Below are positions 1,195 to 15,609 of a DNA stretch of 64,000 bases, in pieces. Source of the stretch: an uncultured delta proteobacterium (GTDB lineage: Bacteria > Desulfobacterota > Desulfomonilia > Desulfomonilales > Desulfomonilaceae). A program made the translations under genes and the position numbers. Numbering within the stretch: the stretch's first letter is position 1; every line of letters starts with the position of its first letter. Under the pieces are notes generated by a model. The model was given only the letters and a program-made list of their open reading frames with translations, ran no database searches and was not told the DNA's origin. Location of the stretch: the NCBI GenBank assembly GCA_963789265.1, contig CAWBKB010000001.1, forward strand, positions 256,001-320,000. Direction: 5' to 3'.

Positions 1195-1525
1195 CGTTCT
1201 TCAGCAATCTGGCAAATTTTAGCAGGGTGGAGATGACTCCTCACTCCCGGCCTGATGCCCAAAAGCCACGTCCAGGCGAAGCATGTGTTTCCCCAATTTC
1301 CATCTCCATGAGGCCCTGGAGAACTGCAGAAAAGCGTTGGGTTAGGTCAGATAACAAGTCGGGTTGAACATTTTTCAAAAGTTCTGCCCGACATAATCTT
1401 TTGAATTGATAGCGGTCCGGCAACGACACAGACTCTTCTTGCAATAACTCTTGAGCAAGCCTGACAGATGACCTCTCGACCGCAGGCCAATGTCGCCTTG
1501 CCCGCGTGTCACAATTTGTCCAGGC

Positions 1526-1555
1526 TTGACAAATATATATATTTGGGCAAATAAT
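1526..1555 (+). promoter_or_regulatory. sigma70-type promoter for the TetR gene
   Basis: TTGACA at 1526-1531 and AATAAT at 1550-1555, ~27 nt before ATG 1582. Confidence 0.5.
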
Positions 1556-1575
1556 GTACTAAACGGTTGGTACAT
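1554..1575. promoter_or_regulatory. Palindromic TetR operator candidate
   Basis: ATGTAC-TAAACGGTTG-GTACAT inverted repeat between the -10 box and the start codon. Confidence 0.6.
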
Positions 1576-1581
1576 GCGAGG

Positions 1582-2184
1582 ATGAAAGTGGAGGCCGCCA
1601 CAAAAGGTGAAAAAACGAAAGCCAGGGTTCTGGAAACGGCCAGGCGACTGGTCAACGAGAAGGGGTTTTGCAACACAAGCATCAACGACATCATCCAGGC
1701 AACCGGGGTGAAAAAAGGCAATCTGTATTTCCATTTTTCCAGTAAGGAAGAACTGAGCCTGGCAATCCTGGAAGAGGCCGGCAAACAGTTCTCAGCCTTT
1801 CTATTGAAAAGCCTGCAGGGTGAACGTCCCCTGGACAAGCTGTCCAACTTTCTCGACGCGGTCTTTGAAAAGCATAGAAGGGCGAGGTTCGTCGGAGGCT
1901 GACTGTTCGGTAATACCGCTCTGGAAATGAGCGACTCGAACCCTCGTTTATCGGAACTTATAGGGACGGTCTTTGAACGCTGGACCGGACTCGTTGCAGA
2001 AGTGCTGCGTCAAGCTTGTGATGCTGGGGATCTGACCATGAGTGTCCCTCCGGAGCTGTTTGCCAAGCACATTGTTGCCACCATCGAGGGAGGAATCATG
2101 ATGTCGAGGCTGAGCAAAAATGGAGATGATCTTCGAGACTGTTTGAACTCCCTTCGGGTAGCCTTGGGAATAGAGCCGCAGTAG
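1582..2184 (+). CDS. TetR/AcrR (NemR-like) transcriptional regulator, probable selenoprotein (UGA at 1900-1902)
   Basis: ORFs 1567-1902 and 1927-2184 share a frame separated by one TGA; read-through gives FVGG-U-LFGNTALEMSD, matching the GCLxGN motif of this subfamily; N-terminal HTH (GVKKGNLYFHF); SECIS-like hairpin follows. Confidence 0.85.
1905..1941 (+). promoter_or_regulatory. Bacterial SECIS-like hairpin (TetR)
   Basis: Upper stem CGCTC(1917-21)/GAGCG(1929-33), loop TGGAAAT, lower stem GTTCG(1905-09)/CGAAC(1937-41). Confidence 0.7.
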
Positions 2185-2412
2185 AAGCTTGGTCGTCAAG
2201 CATTCAGGCGGCAATGTCCTGGAGTTCAAGGCTGACCCAATATGTTTGAGCATTAAGAGGAAACCCCATGGCACTGCTACGACGTCGAGAACCGGCTAAA
2301 TCGCATCGCAATTTTTGAAGGAGAAATCAGGGTACGAATGTGGCCAGTGCCCCAACTCCTTGCGCTTTTTAACAATTGGTCGATCATTTGCGAGAGTGCG
2401 GGGAAAATTACT

Positions 2413-3282
2413 ATGAACCTCAATTTTGGAAGAAATCGTTGGCTTTCTTTTCTATTCGGAGTGATGTTTGGGGTGATGATCTTGGTCTGTGGAATAGAGC
2501 TGCGTGCTGGAACTGCCGCGGCGGAGATCTCGTTCGACGATTACGCAGCCGTTCTTAAATCCCATGTTGATGATCACGGGATGGTCAATTACAAAGGGTT
2601 GAAGGCGAATCGCAAACCTTTGGACGATTTCATCTCGTCTCTATCTCGTCTCGATCCCAAGTTCTACGATGGTTGGAACGACAAGGAGAAGATAGCATTC
2701 TGGATAAATGCATATAATGCTTTGACTCTCAAAGCTATTGTCGACCATTACCCCATCGAGGCCTCGTTTCTCAAATCCTTTGTTTACCCCAAAAACAGCA
2801 TCCGCCAGATACCCGGAGTGTGGGACAAGCTCACGTTTGCCGTGATGGGCAGTAACATGACGCTGGACGGCATTGAGCACAGCACACTCCGAGCGAAGTT
2901 CAACGAGCCCAGAATTCATATGGCCTTGGTATGCGCGGCGATGGGATGTCCCCCTTTGAGAAACGAACCATATACTGGTGCGAAATTAGACGCTCAACTG
3001 GGCGATCAGGCGGCTAAGTTCTTGAGAAACCCGGAAAAATTCAGAATAGACCGTAATAACAGCAAAGTGAATCTCTCATCGATTTTCAACTGGTTCGGCC
3101 AGGATTTCGTAAAGACGTATGGTACCGTCAAGGAGTTTTCAGGGTTTTCAAAAAAAGAGAGAGCTGTGCTCAATTTCATAAGCCGTTATCTTGCTCCTGC
3201 GGACAGAGCCTTCCTTTTGAAAAGCGGCTTTACCATCGAATATCTGAAGTATGACTGGTCCTTGAACGAAAGGAAAATTTAG
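2413..3282 (+). CDS. DUF547 domain exported protein
   Basis: N-terminal hydrophobic segment; AFWINAYN, EPRIHMALVCAAMGCPPL and YDWSLN motifs; ATG 2413 preferred over 2338. Confidence 0.9.
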   Translation: MNLNFGRNRWLSFLFGVMFGVMILVCGIELRAGTAAAEISFDDYAAVLKSHVDDHGMVNYKGLKANRKPLDDFISSLSRLDPKFYDGWNDKEKIAFWINAYNALTLKAIVDHYPIEASFLKSFVYPKNSIRQIPGVWDKLTFAVMGSNMTLDGIEHSTLRAKFNEPRIHMALVCAAMGCPPLRNEPYTGAKLDAQLGDQAAKFLRNPEKFRIDRNNSKVNLSSIFNWFGQDFVKTYGTVKEFSGFSKKERAVLNFISRYLAPADRAFLLKSGFTIEYLKYDWSLNERKI

Positions 3283-3415
3283 GGCTTTCCGGCATCGATC
3301 TTTTTTGTGCCCGTTTGTCCCTTGAAGGCTAACCGGCTTGCAACAAGAGCCCTTGCTGAAGCTTTCGGGAACGGGAACTTGCCTTCGAGGAAATGATTTC
3401 GCGGTTGGAGGGGGA

Positions 3416-4009
3416 ATGGAAGCATTGATGAATCACGATGCATCGACGTCGCGGAAACAGGAAGCAGCCCCCGAAAAGTGGGTTGACGCTCATGGAGACT
3501 ATTTGTTTCGGTTTGCAATGAGTAGGCTTCAGGATCGCACAATCGCCGAAGATCTGGTCCAGGAAACGTTCTTGGAAGCTCTTCGCTCTCAGCAATCATT
3601 TCAGGGCAGGGCCTCGGAAAGGTCGTGGATGGTTGAGATCCTTCGCCACAGAATAGTGGACTTTATCCGGAAGAGGATTCGAGAGAAGGTGGACCACGAC
3701 GACGGATCATTTGAGAACCTGTCGGAGGAGTATTTCGATGACAAGGGAAGTTGGGCCCTAAAACCTTCGATGTGGGGAAATAACCCGTTAGAAGTCCTAG
3801 AGGAAAAGGAATTCTGGTCTGTGTTGCTCCAGTGCCTGTCAGGTCTTTCCCGCAGTGCGGCTAATGCTTTTGTGCTTCGAGTACTGGAAGAGTGGCCCTA
3901 CGAGGAATTGTCCGAAAACATGAGCATTTCAACAAACAATCTAGGAGTCATCCTGTACCGGGCTCGGATGCAGATCAGAGGTTGCTTGGAGTCGAACTGG
4001 ATCAAGTGA
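3416..4009 (+). CDS. ECF RNA polymerase sigma factor
   Basis: AEDLVQETFL region 2 and NLGVILYRAR region 4; GGAGG RBS before ATG 3416. Confidence 0.9.
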   Translation: MEALMNHDASTSRKQEAAPEKWVDAHGDYLFRFAMSRLQDRTIAEDLVQETFLEALRSQQSFQGRASERSWMVEILRHRIVDFIRKRIREKVDHDDGSFENLSEEYFDDKGSWALKPSMWGNNPLEVLEEKEFWSVLLQCLSGLSRSAANAFVLRVLEEWPYEELSENMSISTNNLGVILYRARMQIRGCLESNWIK

Positions 4010-4027
4010 ACAACCGGGTGGACGATC

Positions 4028-4291
4028 ATGTTGTCCTGCATAGAAGTGACAAGACTCATCTCCGAATCTTTGGACAGGCCGCTGAGTTTTCGGCAGCGGA
4101 TGTCAGTGGCCATGCACCTTTTTGTCTGTAGATTTTGTTCGCGTTATCGGAAACAGATGCGGCTCATAAGCCTTGCAGTACAGCGCTTGGCAAAAGACAA
4201 AGGTGATGCGCTTGAGAATATCTCCGATGACATGCTTTCACCCGAAGCGCGTGAACGGATCAAAGAAAACTTGCGCAGTGGATCCACGTGA
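4028..4291 (+). CDS. zf-HC2 anti-sigma factor
   Basis: MLSC...HLFVCRFC (HxxxCxxC) directly after the ECF gene. Confidence 0.9.
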   Translation: MLSCIEVTRLISESLDRPLSFRQRMSVAMHLFVCRFCSRYRKQMRLISLAVQRLAKDKGDALENISDDMLSPEARERIKENLRSGST

Positions 4292-4364
4292 GCTACCGGG
4301 TCGGCGAATACCGAGCGCCTGGTCGTCGTAACATTCTCTCGGTTCAAGGAATTTTGGAATCTCG

Positions 4365-4392
4365 GTGTAAGCATTTCGTGTTTCAGACGACT
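4365..4392 (+). promoter_or_regulatory. Candidate ECF promoter 1
   Basis: GTGTAAG-N14-GACGACT, same motif and spacing as at 13024-13051; upstream of the reductase-arsS operon. Confidence 0.6.
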
Positions 4393-4522
4393 TAAGGGTA
4401 ACAGCAATTAACGGAAGGAAGCGCGCGGCATCCTCTATTTCATCGAAGCATATTTCCGCAAGGAGAAGATTGCGGACAGAACGTCAATTATTAGGATTTG
4501 AAGGTCCCGAAAGGGGGACACA

Positions 4523-6820
4523 ATGGATGGTACAGCCGAACAATATGGAATGGTCTCCGGATCAAGGCCCAAATTAAGACTTGCAAAAATCATTCTGGTG
4601 GTCGTCATTGCATTGACTCTGTTGCTGTGCCTCTTCCTCTTACCGGTTAAGGATTATTTGATCGTCGCTCTTGAGTGGACACGAGGACTCGGCGTTTGGG
4701 GCCCCTTGTTTGTAGCGGCGTTTTACGTCGTGGCAGCGGTACTTTTCCTACCCGGCTCTATTATCACGCTGGGTGCCGGGTTCCTGTTCGGAGTCCCAGT
4801 GGGTATGCTCACAGTTTGGATCGGGGCGAACCTTGGAGCGTATGCTGCGTTCCTCGTGGGACGAACTGTCGCACGTGAATGGGTCGCACAAAAAGTAAAG
4901 GGAAACGCAAAGTTCGCTGCTATTGACGAAGCACTGGGCAGAGAAGGGTTCAAAATAGTGCTGCTGTTGCGATTGAGCCCGGTGTTTCCGTTCGACCTTC
5001 TTAACTATGCGCTCGGAATTACGAAAGTCTCTTTCGCAAATTATGCCTTGGCCTCACTCATAGGAATGCTTCCCGGCACGCTTATGTACGTTTACTTTGG
5101 CTCGGCAGCAAGATCTCTCACAGAGCTAGCTGCAGGCAAAGTGGAAACCGGGTCAGCCGGCCAAGTGTTCTTTTGGTTCGGACTGGCTGCCACAATTGCA
5201 GTTGCGCTGTTCGTCACAAGAATTGCCCGCAAGAGCTTGAAAGTAGCGGACGCGTCATCTGCTGTTGCAAAAACACCGCAAACACTGATCCCACCTCTTT
5301 TGGATGGCGGGGTCGAGGTTATCCCTGATGACAGGTACAACCGAGAGCTGGTATCTAACGTGCATCCGACCGGTTGGAGCAATCCCCAACCCGCACAACG
5401 CTACAACCTGGTAGTTCTCGGGGCTGGGACGGCTGGGCTCGTTACTGCGGCAGGTGCAGCGGGGCTGGGAGCGAAAGTTGCCCTGGTGGAACGGCATCTC
5501 ATGGGAGGCGATTGCCTCAACTACGGATGTGTGCCATCCAAAGCTCTGATTCGATCATCCAGGGCGTTTGCAGAGATACAGGCGTCGCAAAATTACGGAA
5601 TCGAGGTTCCAGAAGGGGCGTCAATCAATTTTTCGGCGGTTATGGAGCGATTGAGAAGACTCCGAGCAGGAATCAGCCATCATGATTCTGCACAGCGTTT
5701 CAAGGACCTGGGCGTGGATGTTTTCCTCGGGCATGCCGCATTCACCGGCCGTAACACGATAGAGGTCGACAATAAGTCCCTGCATTTCAAGAAGGCGGTC
5801 ATAGCTACCGGCGCCCGGGCCATGCACCCGGGAATCAAAGGCCTGGCCGAGGCGGGGTTTCTCACGAATGAGACTGTGTTTTCTTTGACCGAAAGGCCTT
5901 CGCGACTCGCCCTGATTGGAGGCGGTCCAATAGGCTGTGAACTGGCGCAGGCGTTCCAGAGATTAGGCAGTCAGGTGATTCTTTTCCACAAGAATGACCA
6001 CATACTGGATCGCGAGGACGCGGATGCTGCGGAAATCATTCAGAACAGATTCATCAAAGAGAGGATTCGACTCATTCTGAACAGTGACCTGAAAGAAGTC
6101 GAGACGGTCAACGGCGAAAAGGTGATCCATTTCGAAGTTAGCGGAAAGAGAGACTCCGTCGCTGTGGACGAGATTCTAGTTGGAGCAGGCCGAGCGCCGA
6201 ATGTTGAGCATCTCAACTTGGAGGCCGCTGGAGTTCAATATGATACTCGCAAGGGTTTTTTTGTAGATGATTACTTACGGACCACAAATCGTGCCATTTT
6301 TGCGGTCGGTGATATTTCCATGAGTTATAAGTTTACCCACACCGCAGACGCGGCTGCTCGCATAGTGATTCAGAACGCCCTTTTCAAGGGATCCAAGAAA
6401 CTCAGCGCCCTGACTGTTCCGTGGTGCACCTACACCGATCCGGAAATCGCCCATGTCGGGATGTATGAGAGAGATGCGATAAAGCGCGGAATAGCCGTCG
6501 ACACATTCGTCAGACCTCTGGTGGAAGTTGATAGACCAATACTGGATGGCGAAGCAGACGGATTCGTAAAAGTTCATGTGAAAAATGGCACGGATAAGAT
6601 CCTCGGGGCCACAATAGTGGCTGCTCACGCCGGGGAAATGATAAGCGAACTCACCTTGGCCATGGTGGGAAAGCTGGGGCTCGGGACGATATCGGGAGTC
6701 ATCCATCCCTACCCAACGCAAGCAGAAGCGATCAAGCAGGCTGCGGACGCGTACAGTCGAACCAGACTCACCCCGCTTGTCAAGACGCTCTTTACGAAAT
6801 GGCTTTCCTGGACTCGTTGA
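4523..6820 (+). CDS. VTT/DedA (TVP38/TMEM64) domain fused to a mercuric-reductase-like flavin disulfide oxidoreductase
   Basis: N-terminal LLRLSPVFPF..LNY DedA motif; GAGTAG FAD site, GGDCLNYGCVPSK redox disulfide, HPYPT..E; no C-terminal Cys-Cys. Confidence 0.9.
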   Translation: MDGTAEQYGMVSGSRPKLRLAKIILVVVIALTLLLCLFLLPVKDYLIVALEWTRGLGVWGPLFVAAFYVVAAVLFLPGSIITLGAGFLFGVPVGMLTVWIGANLGAYAAFLVGRTVAREWVAQKVKGNAKFAAIDEALGREGFKIVLLLRLSPVFPFDLLNYALGITKVSFANYALASLIGMLPGTLMYVYFGSAARSLTELAAGKVETGSAGQVFFWFGLAATIAVALFVTRIARKSLKVADASSAVAKTPQTLIPPLLDGGVEVIPDDRYNRELVSNVHPTGWSNPQPAQRYNLVVLGAGTAGLVTAAGAAGLGAKVALVERHLMGGDCLNYGCVPSKALIRSSRAFAEIQASQNYGIEVPEGASINFSAVMERLRRLRAGISHHDSAQRFKDLGVDVFLGHAAFTGRNTIEVDNKSLHFKKAVIATGARAMHPGIKGLAEAGFLTNETVFSLTERPSRLALIGGGPIGCELAQAFQRLGSQVILFHKNDHILDREDADAAEIIQNRFIKERIRLILNSDLKEVETVNGEKVIHFEVSGKRDSVAVDEILVGAGRAPNVEHLNLEAAGVQYDTRKGFFVDDYLRTTNRAIFAVGDISMSYKFTHTADAAARIVIQNALFKGSKKLSALTVPWCTYTDPEIAHVGMYERDAIKRGIAVDTFVRPLVEVDRPILDGEADGFVKVHVKNGTDKILGATIVAAHAGEMISELTLAMVGKLGLGTISGVIHPYPTQAEAIKQAADAYSRTRLTPLVKTLFTKWLSWTR

Positions 6821-6858
6821 GGCGAGATCCAATAGCCGATACTGTCAGGAGGAGATTC

Positions 6859-7192
6859 ATGGAAACCTATTATGACCCCAAAGACCTTCCGAAATTCGCT
6901 GACATCGGAGAAGAAGCTCCCGAGTTGGCAAAGAAGTTCTTCGATTACTATGGAGCCGTGTTTGCCGAAGGTGAACTCACAGAACGAGAAAAGGCTTTGA
7001 TCGCCCTGGCTGTAGCACATGCCGTTCAATGTCCGTATTGCATAGACGCCTATACCCAGAACCTGTTTGGAAAAAGGGGCCAGTCTCGGTGAAATGACTG
7101 AGGCCGTTCACGTGACCACGGCCATCAGGGGCGGCGCTTCGCTTGTACACGCGACTCAGATGAGGAAAATTGTCAAGAAGGTTTCCATGTGA
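6859..7192 (+). CDS. Carboxymuconolactone-decarboxylase-like (arsenosugar biosynthesis-associated peroxidase-like) protein, +1 frameshift near 7060
   Basis: METYY...QCPYCIDAYTQ then shifted frame TCLEKGASLGEMTEAVHVTTAIRGGASLVH...SM*; AGGAGG RBS. Confidence 0.85.
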
Positions 7193-7207
7193 GCCACGGA
7201 GGGTGTC

Positions 7208-8236
7208 ATGCCTCAGGAACCAACGTCGGCCGACAAGGCGTCAAGCGTTGAAAGCTCTCTAGCCTGTAGAGTGGAACCTTTTGCAGGAACTCTGGCCAGG
7301 CACGGACTTGAACTGAAGAGAGGCCATGCCAACACGCTGCAAATCAACGTTGGTTTGATATGCAACCAGGCTTGCCGGCATTGTCATCTCGAAGCTGGAC
7401 CCAACCGGTCAGAAATGATGAGCCGTGACACGATAGACGAGGTTGTTGCCTACGCCAAAAGGGCACGTTTTCAGGTCGTGGATATCACTGGCGGCGCTCC
7501 AGAAATGAACCCCCAACTGGCCTATCTCATTGAAATGATAGCCCCTCTGACTCCAAGACTGATGCTCCGGGCGAATCTCACTGCGTTGGCTGAACAGAAC
7601 TCGCATCAATTAATAAAGCTGTGCAAGATTCACCGGGTGGTGATTATGGCTTCGTTTCCTTCAGTCAGTGCTTCCCAGACTGACTCTCAGAGGGGCACTG
7701 GCGTGTTGGAGAGGAGCATCGCCATGCTAAAGAAGCTCAATGACCTGGGTTACGGGCCGGAGGGAACGGGTCTGGAACTCAATCTTGTTTCCAATCCCAC
7801 CGGTGCGTTTCTGCCGGTACCCCAATCCCAGGCAGAAAAGAAGTTCAAAGCCGACCTTGGACGAAAATGGGGACTTGTCTTCAACAATCTCTTCACATTC
7901 GCGAATGTCCCGCTGGGAAGATTCCTTGCCTGGCTCAAGGCATCAGGAAACCTTGAAGCATATATGCAGAAGCTCTCAGGAAGCTTCAATCCGTGTACGG
8001 TCGAGGGTTTGATGTGTCGGACGTTCGTATCTGTGGATTGGGAAGGCTATCTATACGACTGCGATTTCAACTTGGCCAGGGGAGCCGGCCTTGCCGGTGG
8101 CAAGCGACATGTCTTAGAGATGGATGGTTTGCCGGAACCTGGAACGCGAATACCCACAGGCAATCATTGTTATGCCTGCACAGCCGGGTCAGGCTTTACG
8201 TGAGGCGGGTCCATTGCGACCCAGGTGGGTCCCTGA
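7208..8236 (+). CDS. arsS: Arsenosugar biosynthesis radical SAM (seleno)protein, UGA at 8201-8203
   Basis: CNQACRHC motif, LMCR, YDCDFN, and C-terminal HCYACTAGSGFT-U-GG where homologues read CTAGxGxxCGG; SECIS-like hairpin follows. Confidence 0.9.
8218..8231 (+). promoter_or_regulatory. Bacterial SECIS-like hairpin (arsS)
   Basis: GACCC-AGGT-GGGTC; AGGU loop resembles the E. coli fdhF SECIS loop. Confidence 0.75.
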
Positions 8237-8347
8237 GAAACGACGTGTACGGGCCTGCCCTTGCCCGGGTGCCCAGGTGCTCTTCGCCGTGTCATTTCCC
8301 TTGCTCCCCATTCAGGCAGAGACTGGGTGAACAGGAGGTCAGGCAAA

Positions 8348-8695
8348 ATGGAACTCAGAGGAAAAGCTGAAATTCTACAGGTCCGAATACTCTATTCTGA
8401 AGGATGTGCCAACACTCCTCCGACCGTCGAATTGGTGAAAAAGGTTGCTCAGGAACTCAATGTGTCAATTCATGTAGAGATGATGGCGGTAAGAACCCTA
8501 CAAGAAGCACAAGAACTTCGTTTCTTGGGAAGTCCTACAGTCCAAATTGACGGAATAGACATCGAGCCTTCATGCCTTGATAACTGCACATACGGGCTGA
8601 CCTGACGCCGGTACGAGGCCTCAGGCGTGCCCCCTGAGGAGATGGTACGACAGGCGTTGCTGAGGGCTTCACGACAAAGAGGCCAGGAAATGTGA
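8348..8695 (+). CDS. Thioredoxin-like DF-family (seleno)protein, UGA at 8603-8605
   Basis: AGGAGG RBS; EGCAN, FLGSPTVQIDGIDIEP, then YGLT-U-RRY (family GLxCRxY); read-through continues 29 codons to TGA 8693-8695, overlapping the next ORF's GTG. Confidence 0.8.
8619..8639 (+). promoter_or_regulatory. Bacterial SECIS-like hairpin (DF protein)
   Basis: CCTCAGG-CGTGCCC-CCTGAGG, 7-bp stem starting 14 nt after the UGA. Confidence 0.7.
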
Positions 8696-10530
8696 TTCGA
8701 GAAGGCGCAAGTAAGATGTTACGTCCCGCTTGCCTTGTGAAGACGGACCGACATTCCGGGAACAATCTCTTGTCAAACGCTCTTTCTGCAGAAAGATATG
8801 ATTCCGAAAGTGTCAACGATAAGCCGAAAGTAAAAAAAGATCGTCGGTTCGATTCAACGCACTTCACATTCCGTGACCGATGCAAACCTAACGGCATACG
8901 ACGTGCCTGTCTGATCTTCGCAACTATGTCGGTTGCTCTGATAAGTTTTTGCGCATACAAACGGACTTTGGCATACTTCTTCGCCGGGACCGACACATTC
9001 ACTCTCATTGAAACGGCCAGACTCACTTCGGCAAAAGATTTAATTAAGATTCTCTGCAACCCACTTATGGCAGGATCAGGTTTCGTTTCCCGGGCCTTGT
9101 TCTATAGGCCTGTCTCATCATTATCCTACAGTCTGGATTACTTTTTGTGGGGATTGAACCCCTTTGGTTACCATCTTACCAACCTGATCCTTCATGTCCT
9201 GGTAACCGCTCTGGTGTTAATTCTCGTCGTATCGCTGACCAACGGTGATGTGGTCAAGGCTTGGGCGTCAGCTCTCATTTTTTCCCTCCATCCGATTCTC
9301 ATTGAAAGCGTCCCGGCCCCGGACTGCAGACACGATCTTTTGGCAGCCTTCATCTTGGTCTCGGCTTTTATTCTATTTATTAGAGCTCGTGATGGCGGGG
9401 CATTCAGTAAGGTCGGATTCGGTTTGTCCGTTTTGTGTTACGGACTTGCCCTCGGTTCAAAAGAAATAGCCGTTGTGTTTCCATGTCTCACGTTCGCATA
9501 TATCTTGATATTTTCCGATCCTGGTTGCAAGAGATCAAGAAGAATTTGGGCGGCAACGAGACGAAGCGCCGTGTACCTGGGAGTGACACTCGTTTACATG
9601 GCTTGGAGAACCGTCATTCTGGGCGGACTGGGAGGGTATTCCACGGAGTCCGCTGGTTCCACCTTTTGCCACCGTGTGATGGATATTGTAGTCATGTATC
9701 TCAGAGATTTGGTATATCCGCAAGATTTCTTAAGCCTTTTCGGTACGATCTCCATGTCTTTGTTGATATTGTTGCTGACTTCTTTGGTCGCAGTCCACGG
9801 GTGGGATTTTCGGCAAAGTAGCGGAACGGACCAAGAATCCCATACCAAGCTGGCCCGATTCTTTTTGGTATGGCTCTGTTTGCCTATAGCGGTAATGGTG
9901 TTCACATTAACGTTCAGTCATCGAACCATGTATACTGCCGTCATTCCTTTCGCCGCCCTGCTGGGGTGCAATGTTGTAAGCGGCATTCGACACCACGCTA
10001 GTCTTTTAAAAGAAGTTCCCGGAAATCGTACCCTCGCAGGAATCCTCGGCTTGGTCAACATGACGGGATTGAGTTTTTCGGCCCTGGTGCTGAACGCCGC
10101 TTTGGTCGTATCGCTCCTCGCCTATTCTCCGTTGATACGGAGTTACAGTGAATGGGAAGCCAGCTCACAGATCGCTTCGTCACTATTCAAGAAATTGGCC
10201 GAAGTCATTCCCGCCCTGCCGCAAGACACCCTTATTGAGGTCCACAATCTACCTGCCGCTGTCCAGTCGTATCGAAGCGAGATTCCTCGGGCCAGAGAGG
10301 TCGGGTATTTGAATGGCTACAGCATAAAATCGTGGATCGATCTAAATTACCCGGGGAATCATATCCAAGTAAGCATTAACAGCAGACATTGCCCCCGTAG
10401 AACGCCCGAAGACATGCACCTGCTTGTTAAAGTGCTCGATAAAACAAACACAAGGCTTTCCGTATTGTTTGTCCATGATGCATCGGCTATGAGACCAAGA
10501 GCCGTGCAGTGGAGGTACGTAGCCAGATGA
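8692..10530 (+). CDS. Multi-pass membrane glycosyltransferase, GT-C-like (ArnT/PMT/TMTC-like); true start probably downstream
   Basis: FYRP..SLDY.LWGLNPFGYHLTNLILH and LGSKE motifs, about 12 hydrophobic segments. Confidence 0.7.
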   Translation: MIREGASKMLRPACLVKTDRHSGNNLLSNALSAERYDSESVNDKPKVKKDRRFDSTHFTFRDRCKPNGIRRACLIFATMSVALISFCAYKRTLAYFFAGTDTFTLIETARLTSAKDLIKILCNPLMAGSGFVSRALFYRPVSSLSYSLDYFLWGLNPFGYHLTNLILHVLVTALVLILVVSLTNGDVVKAWASALIFSLHPILIESVPAPDCRHDLLAAFILVSAFILFIRARDGGAFSKVGFGLSVLCYGLALGSKEIAVVFPCLTFAYILIFSDPGCKRSRRIWAATRRSAVYLGVTLVYMAWRTVILGGLGGYSTESAGSTFCHRVMDIVVMYLRDLVYPQDFLSLFGTISMSLLILLLTSLVAVHGWDFRQSSGTDQESHTKLARFFLVWLCLPIAVMVFTLTFSHRTMYTAVIPFAALLGCNVVSGIRHHASLLKEVPGNRTLAGILGLVNMTGLSFSALVLNAALVVSLLAYSPLIRSYSEWEASSQIASSLFKKLAEVIPALPQDTLIEVHNLPAAVQSYRSEIPRAREVGYLNGYSIKSWIDLNYPGNHIQVSINSRHCPRRTPEDMHLLVKVLDKTNTRLSVLFVHDASAMRPRAVQWRYVAR

Positions 10531-11240
10531 GAAATGGGAATCGCGTAGCCGTCATAATTCCGGCACTTAATGAAGAGAAAGCCATTGGAAAGGTGATAGC
10601 GGCCATACCGGAATGGGTCGATGATGTGATCGTTGTAGACAATGGCTCGACCGACAAGACACCGGAAATCGCAATCGCGCAAGGAGCATGTGTAGCCTTC
10701 GAACCTCGCCGCGGGTACGGTTCTGCTTGCCTGACCGGAATCAGGTACCTCGAGAATCCGGATATAGTTCTTTTCGTAGACGGCGACTTCAGTGACGACC
10801 CCGGTGAGGCTGACTTGTTGGTCGACCCAATTATAGATGGGACAGCCGATATGGTCATAGGCTCTCGTTTGTTGGGAAATCGAGAGTGCGGGGCGCTCAC
10901 CCCACAAGCGATGTTCGGCGGCTGGCTGGCCTGCAAGCTCATGGCCTTATTTTGGGGAGCGCAGTTTACCGACCTGGGACCCTTTCGCGCGATAAGGTTC
11001 ACCGCTCTCCGAGATTTGGGCATGAGAGATCCGGATTACGGATGGACGGTGGAAATGCAGATCAAAGGGGTACTCGCAGGGCTCAACGTTCAAGAGGTTC
11101 CGGTCTCCTACAGGCGACGGATTGGAAAGTCAAAAATTTCTGGAACGATCAGAGGTGTTGTCGGGGCTGGGTTTAAGATTCTCGGCACGATCTTCCTCGC
11201 GGCCATGAGCGCCCGGAAGCAACCGGGACGAAGTAAGTGA
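10527..11240 (+). CDS. Glycosyltransferase family 2 (polyprenol-phosphate mannose synthase-like)
   Basis: IIPALNEE, VVDNGSTD, GYGSAC, DGDFSD, DLGPFRAI, YGWTVEMQ. Confidence 0.92.
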   Translation: MRNGNRVAVIIPALNEEKAIGKVIAAIPEWVDDVIVVDNGSTDKTPEIAIAQGACVAFEPRRGYGSACLTGIRYLENPDIVLFVDGDFSDDPGEADLLVDPIIDGTADMVIGSRLLGNRECGALTPQAMFGGWLACKLMALFWGAQFTDLGPFRAIRFTALRDLGMRDPDYGWTVEMQIKGVLAGLNVQEVPVSYRRRIGKSKISGTIRGVVGAGFKILGTIFLAAMSARKQPGRSK

Positions 11241-11310
11241 CGGCCCAACGGAGAGGCGTGGACCTTGCATTCCTCGGGCGCATACCGTTGTCTCGAATTC
11301 CGGCGTTAGC

Positions 11311-12819
11311 TTATGGACGCCCATAAGTTTCCGGACACAAAGTCTTCTCCGATTTCAGTAGTTGCCAAGATACTAGAGACACAAAAGGCAAGTACTCTGC
11401 CCAGACCACGAGGTTGTCGAAGGTCGATGGATGGCCCACCCCTCGATAATAGTACACCAAGTAATACAACGGCAAACAGCAATTGAGGACCAGAAGGGAA
11501 GGCATGGGGGAGATTGCCAGGAAAGGTACGGCCCACAAGAAATACCACGGGAAAGCGGTAGGGCTGAGAAGGAATACCGCTGCAACGATGAGGAGACAGT
11601 GCGTCCAAACTTGCTTGGAATCTGCTGATGTATTCCCGGACAACCACAAGATCCAGAATGCCACAGCCACAAGTACCACACCTCGAGTTGTTATTTGAGT
11701 TAGGGACGTGTCCAGTGAAAGGCCGGCAAGGACGTACTTCACCCCCCAGGATATTAGCCTGTACGCCGCATCGTTCATCTCCCAATATCTGCCGTATGCC
11801 ACGAATCCGGAACTGCTATCGATCCCTGATAGGTAGACGGGGAGGAAGAGAATGGCGGACGCAATCCCAAACACTCCCAATGAAAAGACAAACCTTCGAG
11901 GTGCCTTCAGTAGAGGCCACAGAATTACAGGAAGCAAAACCAGAGGCCACAGCTTGGAAGCCACAGCCAATGCCAAGGTAATCGCAGCCTCCACCTGCCT
12001 ACCCTTGAGAGCCAGGACTATCGCAGCCAATGCGAAGGGCAACGCAATCACATCGAGATGCATGGTGTTGAAGATTTCCCTTACAACGAGAGGATTCCAC
12101 CAATAGACGGCAGCCAAAACGCATGGCAAGCGTAGACTTCGGAGCACGATCAGAAGGATTACAAGAGTGGCTACATCGAAGATTGCCAGGACAGTCCGCA
12201 GTGCAAACTCATTCCAAGGTCGCAATAAATATGCAGCGGCAAAAGTTGCTTGAGCTACCGGCGGGTAGATAGTCCTCAATTTCGGAAAGCTGACCCTGCC
12301 TATCACGTCACCCGATTCCCGGGCCAATCGGACGAGCGTCCTCGGAACGGGTGCTGTGGCTTCGATCGCTTGCTTGGGTGAGAAATCGAACGGATTTATG
12401 CCGTGCGCGAGGACTGCTCCGTCCCAAAGGTACCGATAGTAGTCATATTCCAGCATCGGTGTTGAAACAAACATGATTCCTCGCATGAAAATACCCACGC
12501 ATACGAGCCAAGGCAGGACATCATCCTTGGCCGACCGCTTAAACACTCCTCTCCAAACTGCGAACAAGAACACAGCGCCTGCTGCGAATTCGATGGCCAC
12601 CATTGTCACAACAGGCTGTTCCGATAGAGATCGATCATACCCGAACTGAGTCGATAAGAATGCCAACGCTGCGTGGCAACCGATGAGTGTTAGACCGGTA
12701 ACGCCCCAGAATATTCGAGGAGACATCTCCATTGAAGAAAGATATCTCAGCATGGAAATTATTTGATGTCCCGATTTGTCGGTCATTGCAAGTAGACGCT
12801 CCGTGATTTCGAAGCGCAC
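11311..12819 (-). CDS. Membrane glycosyltransferase, GT87/DUF2029-like; start uncertain
   Basis: DYYRYLWDG, TIYPP, YWWNPL..E....H.D and PWY motifs; multi-pass. Confidence 0.75.
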   Translation of the reverse strand: MRFEITERLLAMTDKSGHQIISMLRYLSSMEMSPRIFWGVTGLTLIGCHAALAFLSTQFGYDRSLSEQPVVTMVAIEFAAGAVFLFAVWRGVFKRSAKDDVLPWLVCVGIFMRGIMFVSTPMLEYDYYRYLWDGAVLAHGINPFDFSPKQAIEATAPVPRTLVRLARESGDVIGRVSFPKLRTIYPPVAQATFAAAYLLRPWNEFALRTVLAIFDVATLVILLIVLRSLRLPCVLAAVYWWNPLVVREIFNTMHLDVIALPFALAAIVLALKGRQVEAAITLALAVASKLWPLVLLPVILWPLLKAPRRFVFSLGVFGIASAILFLPVYLSGIDSSSGFVAYGRYWEMNDAAYRLISWGVKYVLAGLSLDTSLTQITTRGVVLVAVAFWILWLSGNTSADSKQVWTHCLLIVAAVFLLSPTAFPWYFLWAVPFLAISPMPSLLVLNCCLPLYYLVYYYRGVGHPSTFDNLVVWAEYLPFVSLVSWQLLKSEKTLCPETYGRP

Positions 12820-13023
12820 GCCCTCAGATTTTCTGACTCATATTATTCGAGTCACAACGGCATAAGAAGCAAAATCGTCCCCCAAGTCAAACCTCCAGGC
12901 CAAAGTCTCCTCCACATGTCTCGTAATGTATCAACGAATTAATCGGGTTCAGAAGTGCCTCACTGTTTCATGCAACCGTTGTCTCAGGCAGCTAATATCG
13001 GTTACAAGCAGATAAGAATTCTT

Positions 13024-13051
13024 GTGTAAGAATTTCCGCCCCCGGACGACT
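13024..13051 (+). promoter_or_regulatory. Candidate ECF promoter 2
   Basis: GTGTAAG-AATTTCCGCCCCCG-GACGACT, ~100 nt upstream of ORF 13149. Confidence 0.6.
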
Positions 13052-13148
13052 AACAGTAAAAAAATTGTCCCTGGGGCCAAAACCAGATAGATCCGGACGG
13101 CCTCGAAGGCAATGCTGGAAAAAAGTTTAGCGAAAGGGGAAGAAAACG

Positions 13149-13577
13149 ATGAAAATCCGCATGAACATGCTGGTATTTGTGGCTCTGGCTGCGGTTCTTG
13201 GCTTCGGCGCGGTTTCGTGGGTCGGAAGACAAAATCTTCCTTTCATGGCGGCCAAAGATAGTGCAAAGGCGACAGGTACCATCGATCTGAGTAATGATAA
13301 ACTGACGATCCAAGCTCATGGCCTGAAACCGAACTCTATTTACACAGTCTGGTTTGTGAACATGAAGCCTAAGAAAGAGCAGGCGGGGGCGGGCAAAGCT
13401 CCATTCATGTTCAAAACGGACTCGCAGGCCAAGGGTGCTTACAATGCGTCTCTTGCAAAGTCACCGATAGGCAAATGGAGTACGATAATGGTGGTGCGTC
13501 ATCCGAGCGGAGATCCAAAGTACATGAAATACATGGTCCCGGCTTTTTCGACCATGATCCCAAAATCCGGCAAATGA
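13149..13577 (+). CDS. Exported hypothetical protein
   Basis: Signal-peptide-like N-terminus, beta-rich GLKPNSIYTVWFVN segment, purine-rich RBS. Confidence 0.7.
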   Translation: MKIRMNMLVFVALAAVLGFGAVSWVGRQNLPFMAAKDSAKATGTIDLSNDKLTIQAHGLKPNSIYTVWFVNMKPKKEQAGAGKAPFMFKTDSQAKGAYNASLAKSPIGKWSTIMVVRHPSGDPKYMKYMVPAFSTMIPKSGK

Positions 13578-13707
13578 CACAGCAGGAGAGAGGGGATCCT
13601 CTCTCCGCCTCTTCTTCGCTAGCTTCTGTATTGTGACATTTACCCACTAGGTCTCAATGCTGCCGGCGAGACCTCAAGGTCTTGCGAGCTCCAAGAGCGC
13701 CCGGCTT

Positions 13708-14860
13708 TCAGCCGGCCAGTTGCCGTTGCCAACCTGCTATCCAACTTGGCATCCATTCCCCGACATCCACCGTCCCGGTTCCGAGTACGAAGTTCAGCGC
13801 CGGCTTCCAATAATCTTCAAGTGCCTGTTTCTTCATAAAAAGTCCAATATGGCCGCAATCGGGGATAGTGATCTTTAGTACCTCTCCGGAGACATACTGT
13901 GCCATATTGAATAGTTGCGGTTCCAGAGTAATGTCGTCGTTGGCTCCCACGATGAGTTACAACGGGGCAGGCAATGTTCTTGAGGGAAACATATTGGCCC
14001 AGGACTTTCAGCTTGCCTCGTACGAGTCTGTTTCGTTTGAACAATTCGTAGACGGCTTGCAAATACCAGGATCCGGCAACATCTTGAGTGTACTCGTACC
14101 AGGTCCGAAATCGGTGTGATCTTTCAACTATCTTGGGCTCGTTTATGTTCGTGAACAGTTTTAGGTAATCCCCGACGTACCGATCGTACACATTCATATT
14201 CTTAAATCCGGTCACAATGAATTTTCCCTTCATGACGCCAAGACCCATTTGCACCATAGACCAATAAAATTCCATAGGCAGACTCTGCACCATTTCTTGC
14301 AGCTTGCCGCCCCCGGCCGTGAAGTCGATAGGGGCTCCGCCGAGTATAAGCGATAAGACTTTGGCAGGGTAGAGAGACGCATATATGCTTGACAACCATC
14401 CTGCCTGACACAAGCCGATTATATGAACTTCGCCACCAATGAGGTTCACACAGTCTGAAACCTGGCGGACCAGGTCGTCGATTGTCTCGTCGCCTCTGGA
14501 AGGATCGGCACTTTTCCATTCCACTGCGTAAATCGTGCAACGGGAGTTGTGCTTGCACAACTCCACCAACGACTGTCCGGGCAAGGCAAAATCGGTTATG
14601 CAACTATGGTGCCCTGCCTGAGGGCCCAAAATCAGCAACGGAGGCCCAGATCTTTTCGGGGTGAATTGTCTTAACTTGATTGCCGCTGTCTCTAAAACCA
14701 CTATATTTTCGGACTGCCAGTCCGGCTTTTCAACTGAGAGCAGTTCTTGCCAGAATTTGAAGAGGCTCTGATAGAAACTCGCGTAATAGTTCAGCCACGA
14801 GAGCCCGAAGACGTCGCTCGAAGGTGAATATGAACTTGCATTTCCGTCACTTTCCATCAT
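13708..14860 (-). CDS. Alpha/beta hydrolase, PHA depolymerase-like, frameshift near 13955
   Basis: PQAGHHS, GLCQAGW nucleophile motif, APIDF, and GHIGLFM in the downstream frame. Confidence 0.75.
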
Positions 14861-15609
14861 GGATCGCATCCTTTCCGCAAAGCTCCAACCTGCGTACGAA
14901 CTTCTCCGCCCGCAGTGAATTCCTTGAAGCCTCGAAAGAAGCCCCAGTGCTCGTGCATCAGGCAGTCTCGCCGATGCCGGACATGTGCCTTCCCGAATCA
15001 AATGGGAGGCGTCACGCTTAAGCCTGCATTTCAGAAAATCTTAGTATTAGAGGTAGGATTCTACCGTAGACCACCGAGATGTAACGGACTGCCCCGGCCC
15101 CCAGACGTCCGGTCACGCCCATTTCGCAATCATGGTCCCGGTATGCGGTAACAGTGCTCTCTCCAGCCGTTGGGTATTCATCGAGAAAGCAACCGAGTGC
15201 TTTGACCATCGTGAAGCACTGATTTACCTATAGGTCACGTCGTAAGGTCAGTCAATCTTTTTCTTGCACGTAGGACTTTTCCCAAAAAGAGGAGCACGGG
15301 TGTCGGATTTTAAACGTGACGGCGGGGTGTTGTGGTTTTCATGAAGTGAAAAATGGAGAAACTCCTGGTAAAGGATTGTTGACGGAGCGGCCTGGAGTGA
15401 GGTACTCTCGGAAACACGACAAAATAGGTTTCTTCATCAACGTGATAACGGTTTTGCCTTTTTGGTGTGTTATGTGGGGGGGACTGCCCGGGGCTTTTTC
15501 GGGGTCAGGGGAACCGTTCTGCGACGGGACTCCGGCCCGGGGGCACCAGAATTGGCAGGACCGCGGCGTAATTCCAGTTCTTGGCTATTCAAGAGCGGTG
15601 AAGGTGATT

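Follow-up and report, generated by a model that had tools for sequence, protein, structure and literature searches.

A predicted selenocysteine-containing TetR repressor at the head of an ArsS cassette in an uncultured member of the Desulfomonilaceae

Introduction

Do twelve genes that surround arsS, three of which contain an in-frame UGA, form one system, and by what would such a group be controlled? This question is raised by a locus near the start of the window, by which we denote the whole analyzed stretch of 64,000 nucleotides from a soil anaerobe, an uncultured member of the Desulfomonilaceae. An earlier note, made from the sequence alone, had regarded the twelve genes as a single selenium-dependent system acting on organoarsenicals or organometals. 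All twelve were found at the expected places (Table 1), and the interpretation was upheld in part, namely for the selenoprotein genes, the recurrent cassette and the regulators, but not for the DF and glycosyltransferase genes as conserved members. We consider it somewhat probable that the locus is a stress-inducible copy of a widespread ArsS cassette with a selenocysteine (Sec) repressor that was acquired in one lineage.

Table 1. Features of the ArsS locus (positions refer to the window).
Feature	Position	Strand	Remarks
Sigma-70-like promoter of repressor gene	-35, 1526-1531; -10, 1550-1555	+	TTGACA; AATAAT
Predicted operator ATGTACTAA-N4-TTGGTACAT	1554-1575	+	Palindrome, overlaps repressor promoter; whole promoter/operator element 1526..1575
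NemR-type TetR repressor	1582-2184	+	TetR_N + TetR_C_13; in-frame TGA 1900-1902 (Sec107)
SECIS-like hairpin in TetR gene	1917-1933	+	
DUF547 protein	2338-3282	+	PF04784, 96.8 bits
ECF sigma factor	3338/3416-4009	+	TIGR02943, 155.5 bits (cut-off 162.2)
zf-HC2 anti-sigma factor	4028-4291	+	NF052368, 71.9 bits; zf-HC2, 31.5 bits
ECF-type promoter-like motif	4367-4391	+	GTAAG-N16-CGAC, before reductase-CMD-ArsS block
VTT/DedA + FAD pyridine-nucleotide disulfide reductase fusion	4523-6820	+	NF004991, 841.6 bits; VTT_dom, 106.5 bits
CMD/AhpD-like 'peroxidase-like' protein	6799-7192	+	TIGR04169; CPYC motif; frameshifted in assembly
ArsS radical SAM selenoprotein	7208-8236	+	TIGR04167; UGA 8201-8203, stop 8234-8236
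DF family thioredoxin-like (seleno)protein	8348-8695	+	NF049942, 108.7 bits (cut-off 70); UGA 8603-8605
612-aa polytopic membrane protein, probably GT-C fold	8692-10530	+	Start uncertain: GTG 8692 or ATG 8716
GT2 glycosyltransferase, polyprenyl-phosphate-sugar synthase type	10509-11240	+	Glycos_transf_2, 73.7 bits
GT87-like membrane glycosyltransferase, convergent	11311-12819	-	PF09594, 26.6 bits (cut-off 25)
Second ECF-type promoter-like motif	13026-13050	+	Before exported-protein gene
Exported 142-aa protein, no known family	13149-13577	+	
Terminator	13585-13606	+	Behind exported-protein gene

Results and Discussion

Selenocysteine in the TetR repressor

The three UGA-containing genes, encoding TetR, ArsS and DF, have the appearance of genuine selenoprotein genes as judged from their Sec/Cys columns and the hairpin in the TetR gene, and the genome encodes both SelB (386 bits) and tRNA-Sec (71 bits). 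The TetR gene is split into pieces of 111 and 85 aa by standard ORF calling. Taken as a real stop, its TGA would leave a pseudogene or two separate genes, and indel errors do occur in this assembly; however, such an error results in a shifted frame and not in an in-frame TGA. In 14 genes spread over 13 genomes, i.e. four orthologues at 63-67% identity and ten paralogues at 28-35%, the identical TGA is kept in one shared column (FVGG-U-LFGN). Cysteine occupies this column in every Cys form that was aligned or read (the alignment rows and 4 further sequences, a subset of a family for which a search gave 816 full-length homologues at E<=1e-30). The orthologues are equally conserved on both sides of the UGA, with 62-68% identity 3' and 64-69% 5' of it. 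In addition, a SECIS-like hairpin 17 nt past the UGA has been preserved among Sec forms but not among Cys forms: at columns 18-34 past the UGA, 91.8% of the cells pair in the 14 Sec forms, compared to only 54.8% in six Cys forms and 25-43% in controls with a slid hairpin, and the five core pairs are intact in 14/14 Sec forms. One pair covaries (CG in 8, UA in 5, UG in 1), although this covariation concerns a single pair among related sequences in a region that also encodes a conserved peptide. Thus, a genuine stop codon at this position is hardly conceivable. The structure model of the repressor has a pLDDT of 92.7.

A Sec-containing TetR protein was not found in the published literature or in NCBIfam, none of whose models is matched by the repressor above its cut-off. 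Similarly, a 2022 review that tabulates 87 prokaryotic selenoprotein families lists no helix-turn-helix transcription factor and uses 'TetR' 0 times (PMC9312934). With the catalogued prokaryotic selenoproteins the repressor shares a UGA opposite a redox-active cysteine, a hairpin just downstream and a selenoprotein-rich anaerobic host of the Desulfobacterota type, but it differs from them in being a helix-turn-helix transcription factor, absent from that table. Of the products of the three UGA genes, ArsS(U) and the DF (seleno)protein are members of catalogued families; the new part is Sec-TetR, which apparently represents a selenoprotein of a new kind.

The UGA might alternatively serve as a gauge of selenium supply. 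Without Sec, translation would terminate at codon 107, and, since the truncated product could not repress, expression of the operon would follow the selenium status instead of a chemical inducer. The resulting 106 residues are predicted by the structure model to lack most of the ligand/dimerization domain, and two downstream genes likewise require Sec. However, the logic would run the wrong way, as a lack of selenium would switch on genes that encode selenium-requiring products. Moreover, the U column is that of the conserved reactive cysteine of a large sensor family, which accounts for Sec unaided, and in the operons beside the paralogous Sec forms no UGA genes were noticed in passing. We therefore consider this role very improbable and favor a sensing function of Sec107.

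Operator, genomic position and likeness to NemR

Of all sigma-70-like sites in the region 1200-13900, the one that serves as the predicted promoter of the repressor gene scores best, with 11 of 12 positions matched. The overlapping palindrome occurs once in the window (0.04 expected), is the single site in the 6.06-Mb genome with up to two mismatches allowed, and is conserved upstream of 4/4 Sec-TetR orthologues. By sequence prediction, the repressor has one palindromic operator, which is located at its own promoter. The proposal that Sec-TetR belongs with the cassette was borne out, as the gene heads an ArsS cassette in four genomes: the three other Sec orthologues all share the strand of ArsS and precede it by 2-6 kb. 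A Cys orthologue from another family adjoins a group with reductase and CMD+ArsS genes. TetR is absent from 16 of the 19 ArsS loci of the same family. The Cys orthologues mostly reside beside unrelated genes, suggesting that the repressor is a generic sensor that has been recruited to the cassette.

The U column aligns with Cys106 of Escherichia coli NemR (PDB 4YZE), the repressor of nemRA-gloA, and two reports describe this residue as a sensor of reactive chlorine (PMC8748444, PMC7464077). Both proteins have a domain pair of the TetR_N + TetR_C_13 type and head the operon they control, with autoregulation (here predicted) via an operator at the own promoter, and NemR ranks 16th (TM 0.72) in a fold search with the modeled repressor. 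Unlike NemR, the window repressor has Sec for Cys, an identity of only 20%, and an Arg aligned with Lys175, the proposed partner of Cys106; its gene is followed by the ArsS cassette and a sigma/anti-sigma pair and not by nemA-gloA. The closest solved structures are the uncharacterized TetR proteins 3QBM (33% identity) and 3BRU. JGI annotates many homologues as 'repressor of nem operon', and in genome G173 a Cys orthologue is followed by a CMD gene and an old-yellow-enzyme (OYE) gene. The paralogous Sec forms adjoin genes for enoyl-CoA hydratase (ECH) and metallo-beta-lactamase (MBL), and QueG-like genes also occur among the neighbors of repressor relatives.

The ECF sigma factor and its zinc anti-sigma factor

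The likely start of the sigma factor is ATG 3416, which is preceded by GGAGG. The assignment of the ECF/anti-sigma pair to the cassette was supported, since among 80 loci with the reductase fusion, from several phyla, 13 have the ECF gene and 11 the anti-sigma gene in the vicinity. In G013, a sigma factor orthologue adjoins the cassette, and the orthologue of the exported protein directly follows the pair; in G173, where another sigma factor orthologue is found, reductase, ECF and anti-sigma genes are adjacent. The anti-sigma factor resembles the thiol switch of the SigR-RsrA (ZAS) system in that it is short, soluble, of the zinc type (C4, H30-x3-C34-x2-C37, i.e. HxxxCxxC) and encoded directly behind its sigma factor. 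Its N-terminal cysteine is positioned 26 residues before the histidine, a spacing which we take to match that of RsrA. It is, however, not an RsrA orthologue (TIGR03988, 16.2 bits versus a cut-off of 62.5), and the system differs from SigR-RsrA also in a sigma factor close to TIGR02943 and in the motif described below.

In this locus, a promoter-like motif, GTAAG-N15-17-CGAC, is positioned in front of both the reductase-CMD-ArsS block and the gene of the exported protein. It is found before the reductase in 3/3 genomes with the cassette reductase, at matching position in G013 and G014, and represents the sole conserved block of this spacer; it further precedes the exported-protein gene in 2/2 genomes (the window and G013) and the ECF gene in G013. 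At 13 distant ECF-bearing loci, the regions upstream of the ECF, ArsS and reductase genes contain 7 matches in 9,245 nt, compared to 28 in the other 372,697 nt (Poisson P ~8e-6; a match in 6/13 loci). No enrichment was observed in the window with the loose motif (3 found, 1.89 expected, 3 reached in 28 of 100 shuffles) or genome-wide with the strict motif (2 matches versus 6 for the reversed control), and no motif was detected ahead of the sigma gene of the window itself. G014 (100% completeness) has the motif before its reductase gene and no orthologue of the window sigma factor, nor was a sigma factor of the TIGR02943 family found there at E<=1e-25; thus, the assignment of the motif to this sigma factor is not secure.

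The ArsS cassette and its link to arsenic

The combination of ArsS, CMD-like protein, DUF547 and DedA-reductase proved to be a recurrent cassette, as had been proposed. CMD and ArsS occur together in 20/20 ArsS loci, and among 80 loci with the reductase fusion, which occurs across phyla, 23 have ArsS and 22 DUF547; G014 and G013 have DUF547 orthologues at the matching place. The genome to which the window belongs carries one more CMD+ArsS(U) pair, on another contig. The TGA of arsS is at the same position in 20 of 22 matches among relatives, its U column aligns with Cys in five Cys forms, and the Sec form of ArsS has already been catalogued (PMC9312934). The CMD-like gene is present as described but not intact in the window, where profile positions 1-70 and 69-109 are in different frames; it has a single frame in 20/20 other loci. 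The frameshift is due to one extra base near 7060: a contig from a public run (X1) is shorter by 1 letter at 7060, and its version of the protein reads AYTQTCLEKGA, as in relatives.

The arsenic link that we infer for this locus concerns ArsS, an enzyme characterized in cyanobacteria. ArsS converts DMAs(III) to DDMAA by adenosylation, and DMAs(III) is the sole substrate on which an activity of the family has been tested (PMC13598754). Together with the TIGR04169 protein, ArsS exceeds its cut-off in the NCBIfam arsenosugar set (TIGR04167, TIGR04169, TIGR04283, TIGR04282), and DUF547 and DedA-reductase are its neighbors as in many genomes. Unlike that set, the locus lacks TIGR04283, TIGR04282 and arsM, and it carries in addition a Sec repressor, a DF selenoprotein and a glycosylation module of the polyprenyl type. 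The canonical transferases TIGR04283 and TIGR04282 are located on another contig, alone. Elsewhere, canonical ArsS cassettes include, besides a GT2 gene of the TIGR04283 family, one that is CofC-like, which indicates that the sugar step belongs to the known pathway.

The cassette might also be unrelated to arsenic in this organism and provide a general defense against thiol-reactive or oxidative stress or other soft metals, with the TIGR04167 enzyme acting on another substrate and the regulators responding to disulfide or electrophile stress in general. In favor of this view, each of the two regulators belongs to a thiol-switch type, NemR-like or HxxxCxxC anti-sigma. ArsS is accompanied by a CMD protein that is peroxidase-like and by a reductase that resembles MerA and RclA, although it stays below the cut-offs of these models (385.7 and 236.3 bits, respectively), and the repressor relatives control OYE, QueG-like, ECH and MBL genes. 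Furthermore, a profile search detected no ars genes, arsM included, in 1-16000, and the cassette is present in many heterotrophs. However, ArsS scores 383.9 bits, far above the equivalog cut-off of 300, its family has the activity on DMAs(III) mentioned above, and ArsM-like genes are present in the genome (best, 265.9 bits versus a cut-off of 263) and, in one distant cassette (L088), adjoin ArsS. A role apart from arsenic thus appears rather doubtful, if worth keeping in mind.

Proposed regulation

For the stress-inducible cassette that we favor, we infer the following course, including inducers, order of the cascade, co-transcription and the substrate of ArsS in this organism. The single sensing cysteine of the NemR type would be replaced by Sec107, and the repressor would bind its single operator over its own promoter, thereby holding down a proposed transcript that runs from its own gene through DUF547 and ECF sigma to the zinc anti-sigma factor. 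The repressor may be released once its selenol has reacted with an oxidant, with an electrophile or with a trivalent (organo)arsenical, upon which the sigma factor would be made; its Cys/His zinc anti-sigma factor would have to be inactivated as well. The freed sigma factor could then fire a second promoter, before reductase-CMD-ArsS and any genes behind that are reached by read-through, and a third one that serves the gene of the exported 142-aa protein. ArsS might adenosylate dimethylarsenite, as shown for cyanobacterial ArsS, while the reductase and the CxxC/selenol proteins may keep their partners reduced.

The DF and glycosyltransferase genes

The U of DF, which is encoded by a single-copy gene, aligns with a true Cys codon of a 38%-identical homologue. 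The adjacent 612-aa membrane protein has no Pfam or NCBIfam match and its atlas neighbors are unnamed (PMT_2 in 11% of one cluster). Based on its AF2 model, which is of mediocre quality (pLDDT 65) and retrieves nothing but GT-C enzymes at E<=0.001 (14 Foldseek matches; TM 0.34-0.41), it is probably a glycosyltransferase of the GT-C fold. The best NCBIfam scores of the GT2 protein, all below the cut-offs, are those for AglJ (129.9), dolichyl-P hexose transferase (61.4) and PpgS (51.1); an arsenosugar-type TIGR04283 assignment was rejected (35.5 bits versus a cut-off of 182).

According to the earlier note, all twelve genes would act as one system; in such a system, DF and the three glycosyltransferases would attach the radical SAM product to the membrane or process it there. 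DF, GT-C-like and GT2 genes indeed follow ArsS on the same strand with ends that overlap or nearly touch, and the first strong plus-strand terminator is the one behind the exported-protein gene, none but weak in-gene sites being detected between 1582 and 13585. In addition, canonical ArsS cassettes do include a GT2. The co-conservation around arsS, however, which holds for UGA-TetR in its four genomes, does not extend to DF and both GT-C genes: DF, GT-C-like and GT87 are present at 0/19 other ArsS loci and 0/80 reductase loci, and GT2 has one weak partial match among the former and occurs in 3/80 of the latter at 30-34% identity. The GT-C homologues of six relatives are located away from ArsS, DF and GT2. 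A GT2 of the polyprenyl-phosphate-sugar synthase type and GT-C enzymes make up a self-sufficient envelope glycosylation module, and the window GT2 is of this type and not TIGR04283. A single twelve-gene system is thus unlikely, and we read DF(U), GT-C-like, GT2 and GT87 as a lineage-specific addition next to the cassette. A DF homologue follows a MerT-like gene in one genome (G366), which might be taken as a hint of soft-metal handling and would favor the twelve-gene system.

Gene content of the locus

The gene inventory was based on ORFs listed both with UGA as a stop and with UGA read through, combined with NCBIfam and Pfam scans, and by these means all of the genes that the earlier note had named from the sequence were confirmed. 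The exported protein had no Pfam match at E up to 5. Selenocysteine (Sec) insertion machinery is encoded in the genome (SelB, 386.3 bits; tRNA-Sec, 71.3 bits). Standard annotation pipelines miscall four genes of the locus, three at a UGA codon and one through a probable assembly indel. The two flanking genes were not seen in other genomes with the cassette, i.e. ArsS, the CMD-like protein, the DedA-reductase fusion and DUF547.

Features of the locus, their positions in the window and the profile matches of the encoded proteins
Feature	Position	Characteristics	Family match
MFS transporter, lactate/oxalate-formate type	28-1194	upstream flank	
Two further inverted repeats	1514-1545	over the -35 box of the repressor promoter	
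Sigma-70-like promoter	1526-1555	11 of 12 positions matched	
Operator palindrome (predicted)	1554-1575		
TetR	1582-2184	200 residues; single in-frame TGA 1900-1902	TetR_N and TetR_C_13-type domains
Hairpin in TetR gene	1917-1933	starts seventeen bases 3' of the UGA	
DUF547	2338-3282		
ECF sigma	3338-4009	likely true start ATG 3416	
zf-HC2 anti-sigma	4028-4291	87 residues; C4, H30, C34, C37	
VTT/DedA domain fused to FAD disulfide reductase	4523-6820		NF004991, 841.6 bits
CMD protein, 'arsenosugar biosynthesis-associated peroxidase-like'	6799-7192		TIGR04169
ArsS	7208-8236	TGA 8201-8203	TIGR04167, 383.9 bits (equivalog cut-off 300)
DF family (seleno)protein	8348-8695	TGA 8603-8605	NF049942, 108.7 bits (cut-off 70)
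Membrane protein (GT-C-like)	8692-10530	612 residues	no family match
GT2	10509-11240		
GT87-like gene (weak)	11311-12819	convergent	
Exported protein	13149-13577	142 residues	without family
PhaC/PHB-depolymerase-like alpha/beta hydrolase	13817-15001	minus strand; downstream flank	

The TetR repressor as a predicted selenoprotein

A six-frame search of 41 related genomes identified three orthologues of the TetR gene (63-67% identity) and, more distantly related, eight paralogues, each with a single TGA at the same place, as well as Cys-containing homologues without the stop. Two further Sec paralogues and nine Cys forms came from 401 sampled genomes of the phylum. The TGA column is constant within the motif FVGG-U-[LIF]FGN: 14 genes have U there, and all Cys forms that were aligned or read have C. 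Among the latter are four metagenome homologues, read out of 816 full-length homologues at E<=1e-30. Identity between the orthologues does not drop past the UGA (62-68% after it versus 64-69% before it). The hairpin downstream of the UGA was found in all 14 Sec forms, in which 91.8% of the cells in the hairpin columns pair and five core pairs are kept throughout, compared with only 25-43% pairing in slid controls and 54.8% in the same columns of six Cys forms. Covariation is thin, being confined to one pair that varies among the Sec forms (C-G in eight, U-A in five, U-G in one), and the same stretch encodes a conserved peptide; nevertheless, at the sequence level, the contrast between Sec and Cys forms is as predicted for a SECIS element.

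Predicted operator and regulatory range of the repressor

The strongest sigma-70-like promoter of the region lies directly upstream of the repressor gene and is overlapped by the palindrome ATGTACTAA-N4-TTGGTACAT. This palindrome has one match in the window, where 0.04 would be expected, and, with up to two mismatches allowed, one in the entire 6.06-Mb genome; together with the -35 box and the ribosome site it is kept upstream of all four Sec orthologues. Since the palindrome sits at the repressor's own promoter, is single in the genome and is retained in the four orthologues, the predicted target of the repressor is very probably limited to the transcript that starts with its own gene. A search for inverted repeats ahead of DUF547, the reductase and DF was negative in all three spacers. 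In each of the three other genomes with a Sec orthologue, the repressor gene shares the strand of ArsS and lies 2-6 kb upstream of it, separated from it by DUF547, the reductase and CMD in G014 and G013 and by a shorter set in G020. Two more inverted repeats, ATTTGTCCAG/CTTGACAAAT and CAAATATA/TATATTTG, lie over the -35 box of the repressor promoter in the window.

The ECF sigma factor and its zinc anti-sigma factor

The ECF sigma factor scored just below the cut-off of TIGR02943 (155.5 versus 162.2 bits), and its orthologue in G013 reached 163.2 bits. The anti-sigma factor is over the cut-off for zf-HC2 and NF052368 and contains the HxxxCxxC zinc motif of the ZAS type. In G013, the genes for the ECF sigma factor, the anti-sigma factor and the exported protein come directly after ArsS, and in G173, a genome of another family, a reductase of 57% identity is followed by an ECF and an anti-sigma gene. 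Near 80 reductase-fusion loci from many phyla, ECF genes occurred 13 times, anti-sigma genes 11 times, ArsS 23 times and DUF547 22 times. Judged by gene neighbourhood, the ECF/anti-sigma pair and the exported protein travel with the cassette as well.

A promoter-like motif, (T)GTAAG-N15-17-CGAC, precedes the reductase gene in the genome of the window (G000; positions 4367-4391), G013 and G014. It also stands before the exported-protein gene of G000 (13026-13050) and of G013, and in G013 before the sigma gene as well; the spacer upstream of the reductase has no other conserved block. The motif was then counted in 13 distant ECF-bearing loci that had not been used in its definition, giving seven matches in 9,245 nt of windows upstream of ECF, ArsS or reductase genes versus 28 in 372,697 nt elsewhere (Poisson P ~8e-6), with a match in six of the 13 loci. 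The motif count is not enriched in the window, nor is the strict form enriched genome-wide, and in G014 the motif is present but such a sigma factor is absent. As no motif was found before the window's own sigma gene, we take this gene to be fed from the promoter of the repressor. The pair and a promoter-like motif are tied to ArsS/DedA-reductase cassettes across phyla, which offers a way to learn when these cassettes, common but poorly understood, are expressed. A GTAAG-N-CGAC motif also lies beside a canonical ArsS cassette in a Lysobacterales MAG (L159, 7415-8825), oriented the opposite way and towards a bufferin-type MNIO maturase operon, which suggests that the sigma family may also control genes of metal-binding RiPPs there.

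ArsS, the CMD-like protein and a possible role in arsenic metabolism

ArsS carries the radical SAM motif CxxxCxxC as CNQACRHC. Its C-terminal Cys-rich motif reads CTAGSGFT-U in 19 of the 24 loci with a readable C-terminus and CTAGAGSS-C at the same place in the remaining five, and one TGA was present in 20 of 22 TIGR04167 matches from the 41 related genomes. One homologue of 38% identity has a true Cys codon at the position of the U of the DF protein. ArsS(U) and DF(U) belong to selenoprotein families that are already catalogued, ArsS being listed as a predicted selenoprotein in a review table of 2022 (PMC9312934, section 13).

The CMD-like gene of the window is split by a +1 shift, so that profile positions 1-70 and 69-109 fall into two frames, the N-terminal piece alone scoring 126.1 against the TIGR04169 cut-off of 120. 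At all 20 other ArsS loci examined the gene is in a single frame, and without the extra base it reads AYTQTCLEKGA, matching the AYTQ[AS]CLEKGA of the relatives. The read-derived check comprised low-depth contigs only and covered the site in one public sequencing run (X1), in which a 378-nt contig (depth 3.7) has one letter fewer at position 7060; as X1 may be the source sample, this contig is suggestive of an intact gene rather than independent evidence. The frame break is probably an assembly error, and the assembly seems prone to indels, since an ArsM-like gene outside this locus is likewise split over two frames.

According to PMC13598754, other ArsS enzymes adenosylate dimethylarsenite to DDMAA. 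The cassette would handle organoarsenicals in this organism, and we infer that the repressor or the anti-sigma factor might respond to them; a generic role of the cassette in thiol stress is a serious rival. In a family scan that left out the GC-rich locus L103, where genes were mis-called, canonical cassettes in other phyla hold TIGR04283 and TIGR04282, two transferases of the NCBIfam arsenosugar gene set, beside ArsS, whereas the window locus is without both. These two domains are fused in a single gene of this genome that stands alone on another contig (C4:100678-101991).

The genome also contains three ArsM-like genes outside the window (C1:419290-420076, C1:1540192-1540926 and C1:1897387-1897978), one of them over the cut-off. 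One is divided between two frames, for which an assembly indel is the probable cause, and two contain a TGA in frame, which makes them possible ArsM-type selenoproteins. A second pair of CMD-like and ArsS(U) genes (C9:1-1500, L048), whose ArsS is 57% identical to that of the window, is of the type found in most relatives in the genus; no regulator, reductase or DUF547 adjoins it, and queC and housekeeping genes follow. Behind ArsS in two of the four Sec-TetR cassettes (L029, 7676-13150, in G014; L030, 5180-11393, in G020) lies a gene for a GH15 glycoside hydrolase, followed by those for 6-phosphogluconate dehydrogenase, glucose-6-phosphate dehydrogenase and 6-phosphogluconolactonase, all three from the part of the pentose phosphate pathway that yields NADPH.

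DF and the glycosyltransferase-like genes

The genes for DF, the 612-residue protein, GT2 and GT87 are closely packed behind ArsS and no terminator was detected, so that co-transcription is possible. Co-conservation with ArsS, the check named in the earlier note, fails for these four genes: neither the 19 other ArsS loci nor the 80 reductase loci yielded DF, the 612-residue protein or GT87, and GT2 gave weak matches only. Homologues of the 612-residue protein (36-47% identity) occur in six relatives, apart from ArsS, DF and GT2. Thus, the proposal that all twelve genes form one selenium-dependent organoarsenic or organometal system is supported only in part, as the ECF/anti-sigma pair, DUF547, the reductase and CMD do associate with ArsS, whereas DF, the GT-C-like gene, GT2 and GT87 were not co-conserved with it at the loci examined.

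The 612-residue protein is probably a GT-C enzyme, based on its predicted structure: every one of the 14 Foldseek matches at E<=0.001 is a GT-C enzyme, at TM 0.34-0.41 with a mediocre model (pLDDT 65). No profile matched it, with Pfam searched up to E = 5; PDB gave no sequence match, and its Atlas neighbours are unnamed. The GT2 of the window resembles polyprenyl-phosphate-sugar synthases; its assignment to the arsenosugar-type TIGR04283 was rejected (35.5 versus a cut-off of 182).

Relation to NemR and possible sensing role of the repressor

The U column of the repressor aligns with Cys106 of E. coli NemR, which, according to PMC8748444 and PMC7464077, senses reactive chlorine species, proposedly via a sulfenamide with Lys175. 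Both proteins have TetR_N and TetR_C_13-type domains and share the position of the reactive Cys106 of NemR, which is taken by the predicted Sec in the window protein. In contrast, the position of Lys175 is Arg in the window protein and Lys in its paralogues, a placement that is uncertain at 20% identity; this Arg and the low overall identity count against full membership, and nemA and gloA are absent from the window. In the AlphaFold model of the repressor (pLDDT 92.7), residue 107 is located at the end of the loop preceding helix 108-116. The closest structural neighbours are the uncharacterised TetRs 3QBM and 3BRU, which share the GGC motif, with NemR in 16th place, and many homologues are labelled 'repressor of nem operon' by JGI. 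A CMD gene and then an old yellow enzyme gene lie behind the Cys orthologue in G173; other relatives adjoin genes for QueG-like iron-sulfur proteins, and Sec paralogues those for enoyl-CoA hydratase and metallo-beta-lactamase. These contexts would fit an electrophile or redox sensor. The lasting result, as predicted from sequence comparison, is a NemR-type sensor in a new Sec variant, which has a defined operator and sits inside a two-regulator circuit on a known cassette.

To our knowledge, nearly all known bacterial selenoproteins are redox enzymes or carriers. A helix-turn-helix repressor in which Sec replaces precisely the cysteine used for sensing in a studied thiol switch would widen the use of selenium to the perception of signals, and the natural Sec/Cys pair lets one ask whether the benefit of the selenol to a sensor is reactivity, reversibility or affinity for soft metalloids. 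Being small, with a confident fold and a defined operator, the repressor is directly testable. No model of NCBIfam release 20 reached its cut-off on the protein, and no Sec-containing TetR or other helix-turn-helix regulator is among the 87 prokaryotic selenoprotein families in the 2022 table (PMC9312934), nor was one found in the literature searched.

A more specific proposal, which we consider unlikely, is that the selenol of Sec107 is dedicated to sensing methylated arsenic in the trivalent state. With its single free valence, dimethylarsenite, on which ArsS acts, would be bound by one selenolate as a Se-As adduct, upon which the repressor would be released, and the substrate itself would therefore switch on its own pathway. 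If this were true, the repressor would represent a new class of metalloid sensor and be the first DNA-binding transcription factor that contains selenocysteine and has a defined ligand, and a sister Sec-TetR lineage would detect other soft electrophiles.

A second Sec-TetR lineage (28-35% identical), with the same UGA column and a stronger hairpin, was observed at L024, L025, L027, L028 and L060-L069 in the genomes G021, G018, G004, G015, G006, G010, G003, G076, G274 and G014. None of its members is near ArsS; a metallo-beta-lactamase gene lies behind the regulator in four of the five loci scanned, in two together with an enoyl-CoA hydratase gene. An ORF of 152 residues, similar to the C-terminal portion of glycine/proline reductase protein B (GRDB-like) and absent from the window, lies behind the repressor in three genomes, namely G013 and G020 with Sec forms and G160 with a Cys form (L031, 936-1394; L030, 13985-14443; L051, 9491-9949). 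In G366 (L054, 7902-9049), a Cys-form DF homologue is located directly behind a 285-residue MerT-domain protein, and the repressor has a Cys-form orthologue roughly 1 kb away.
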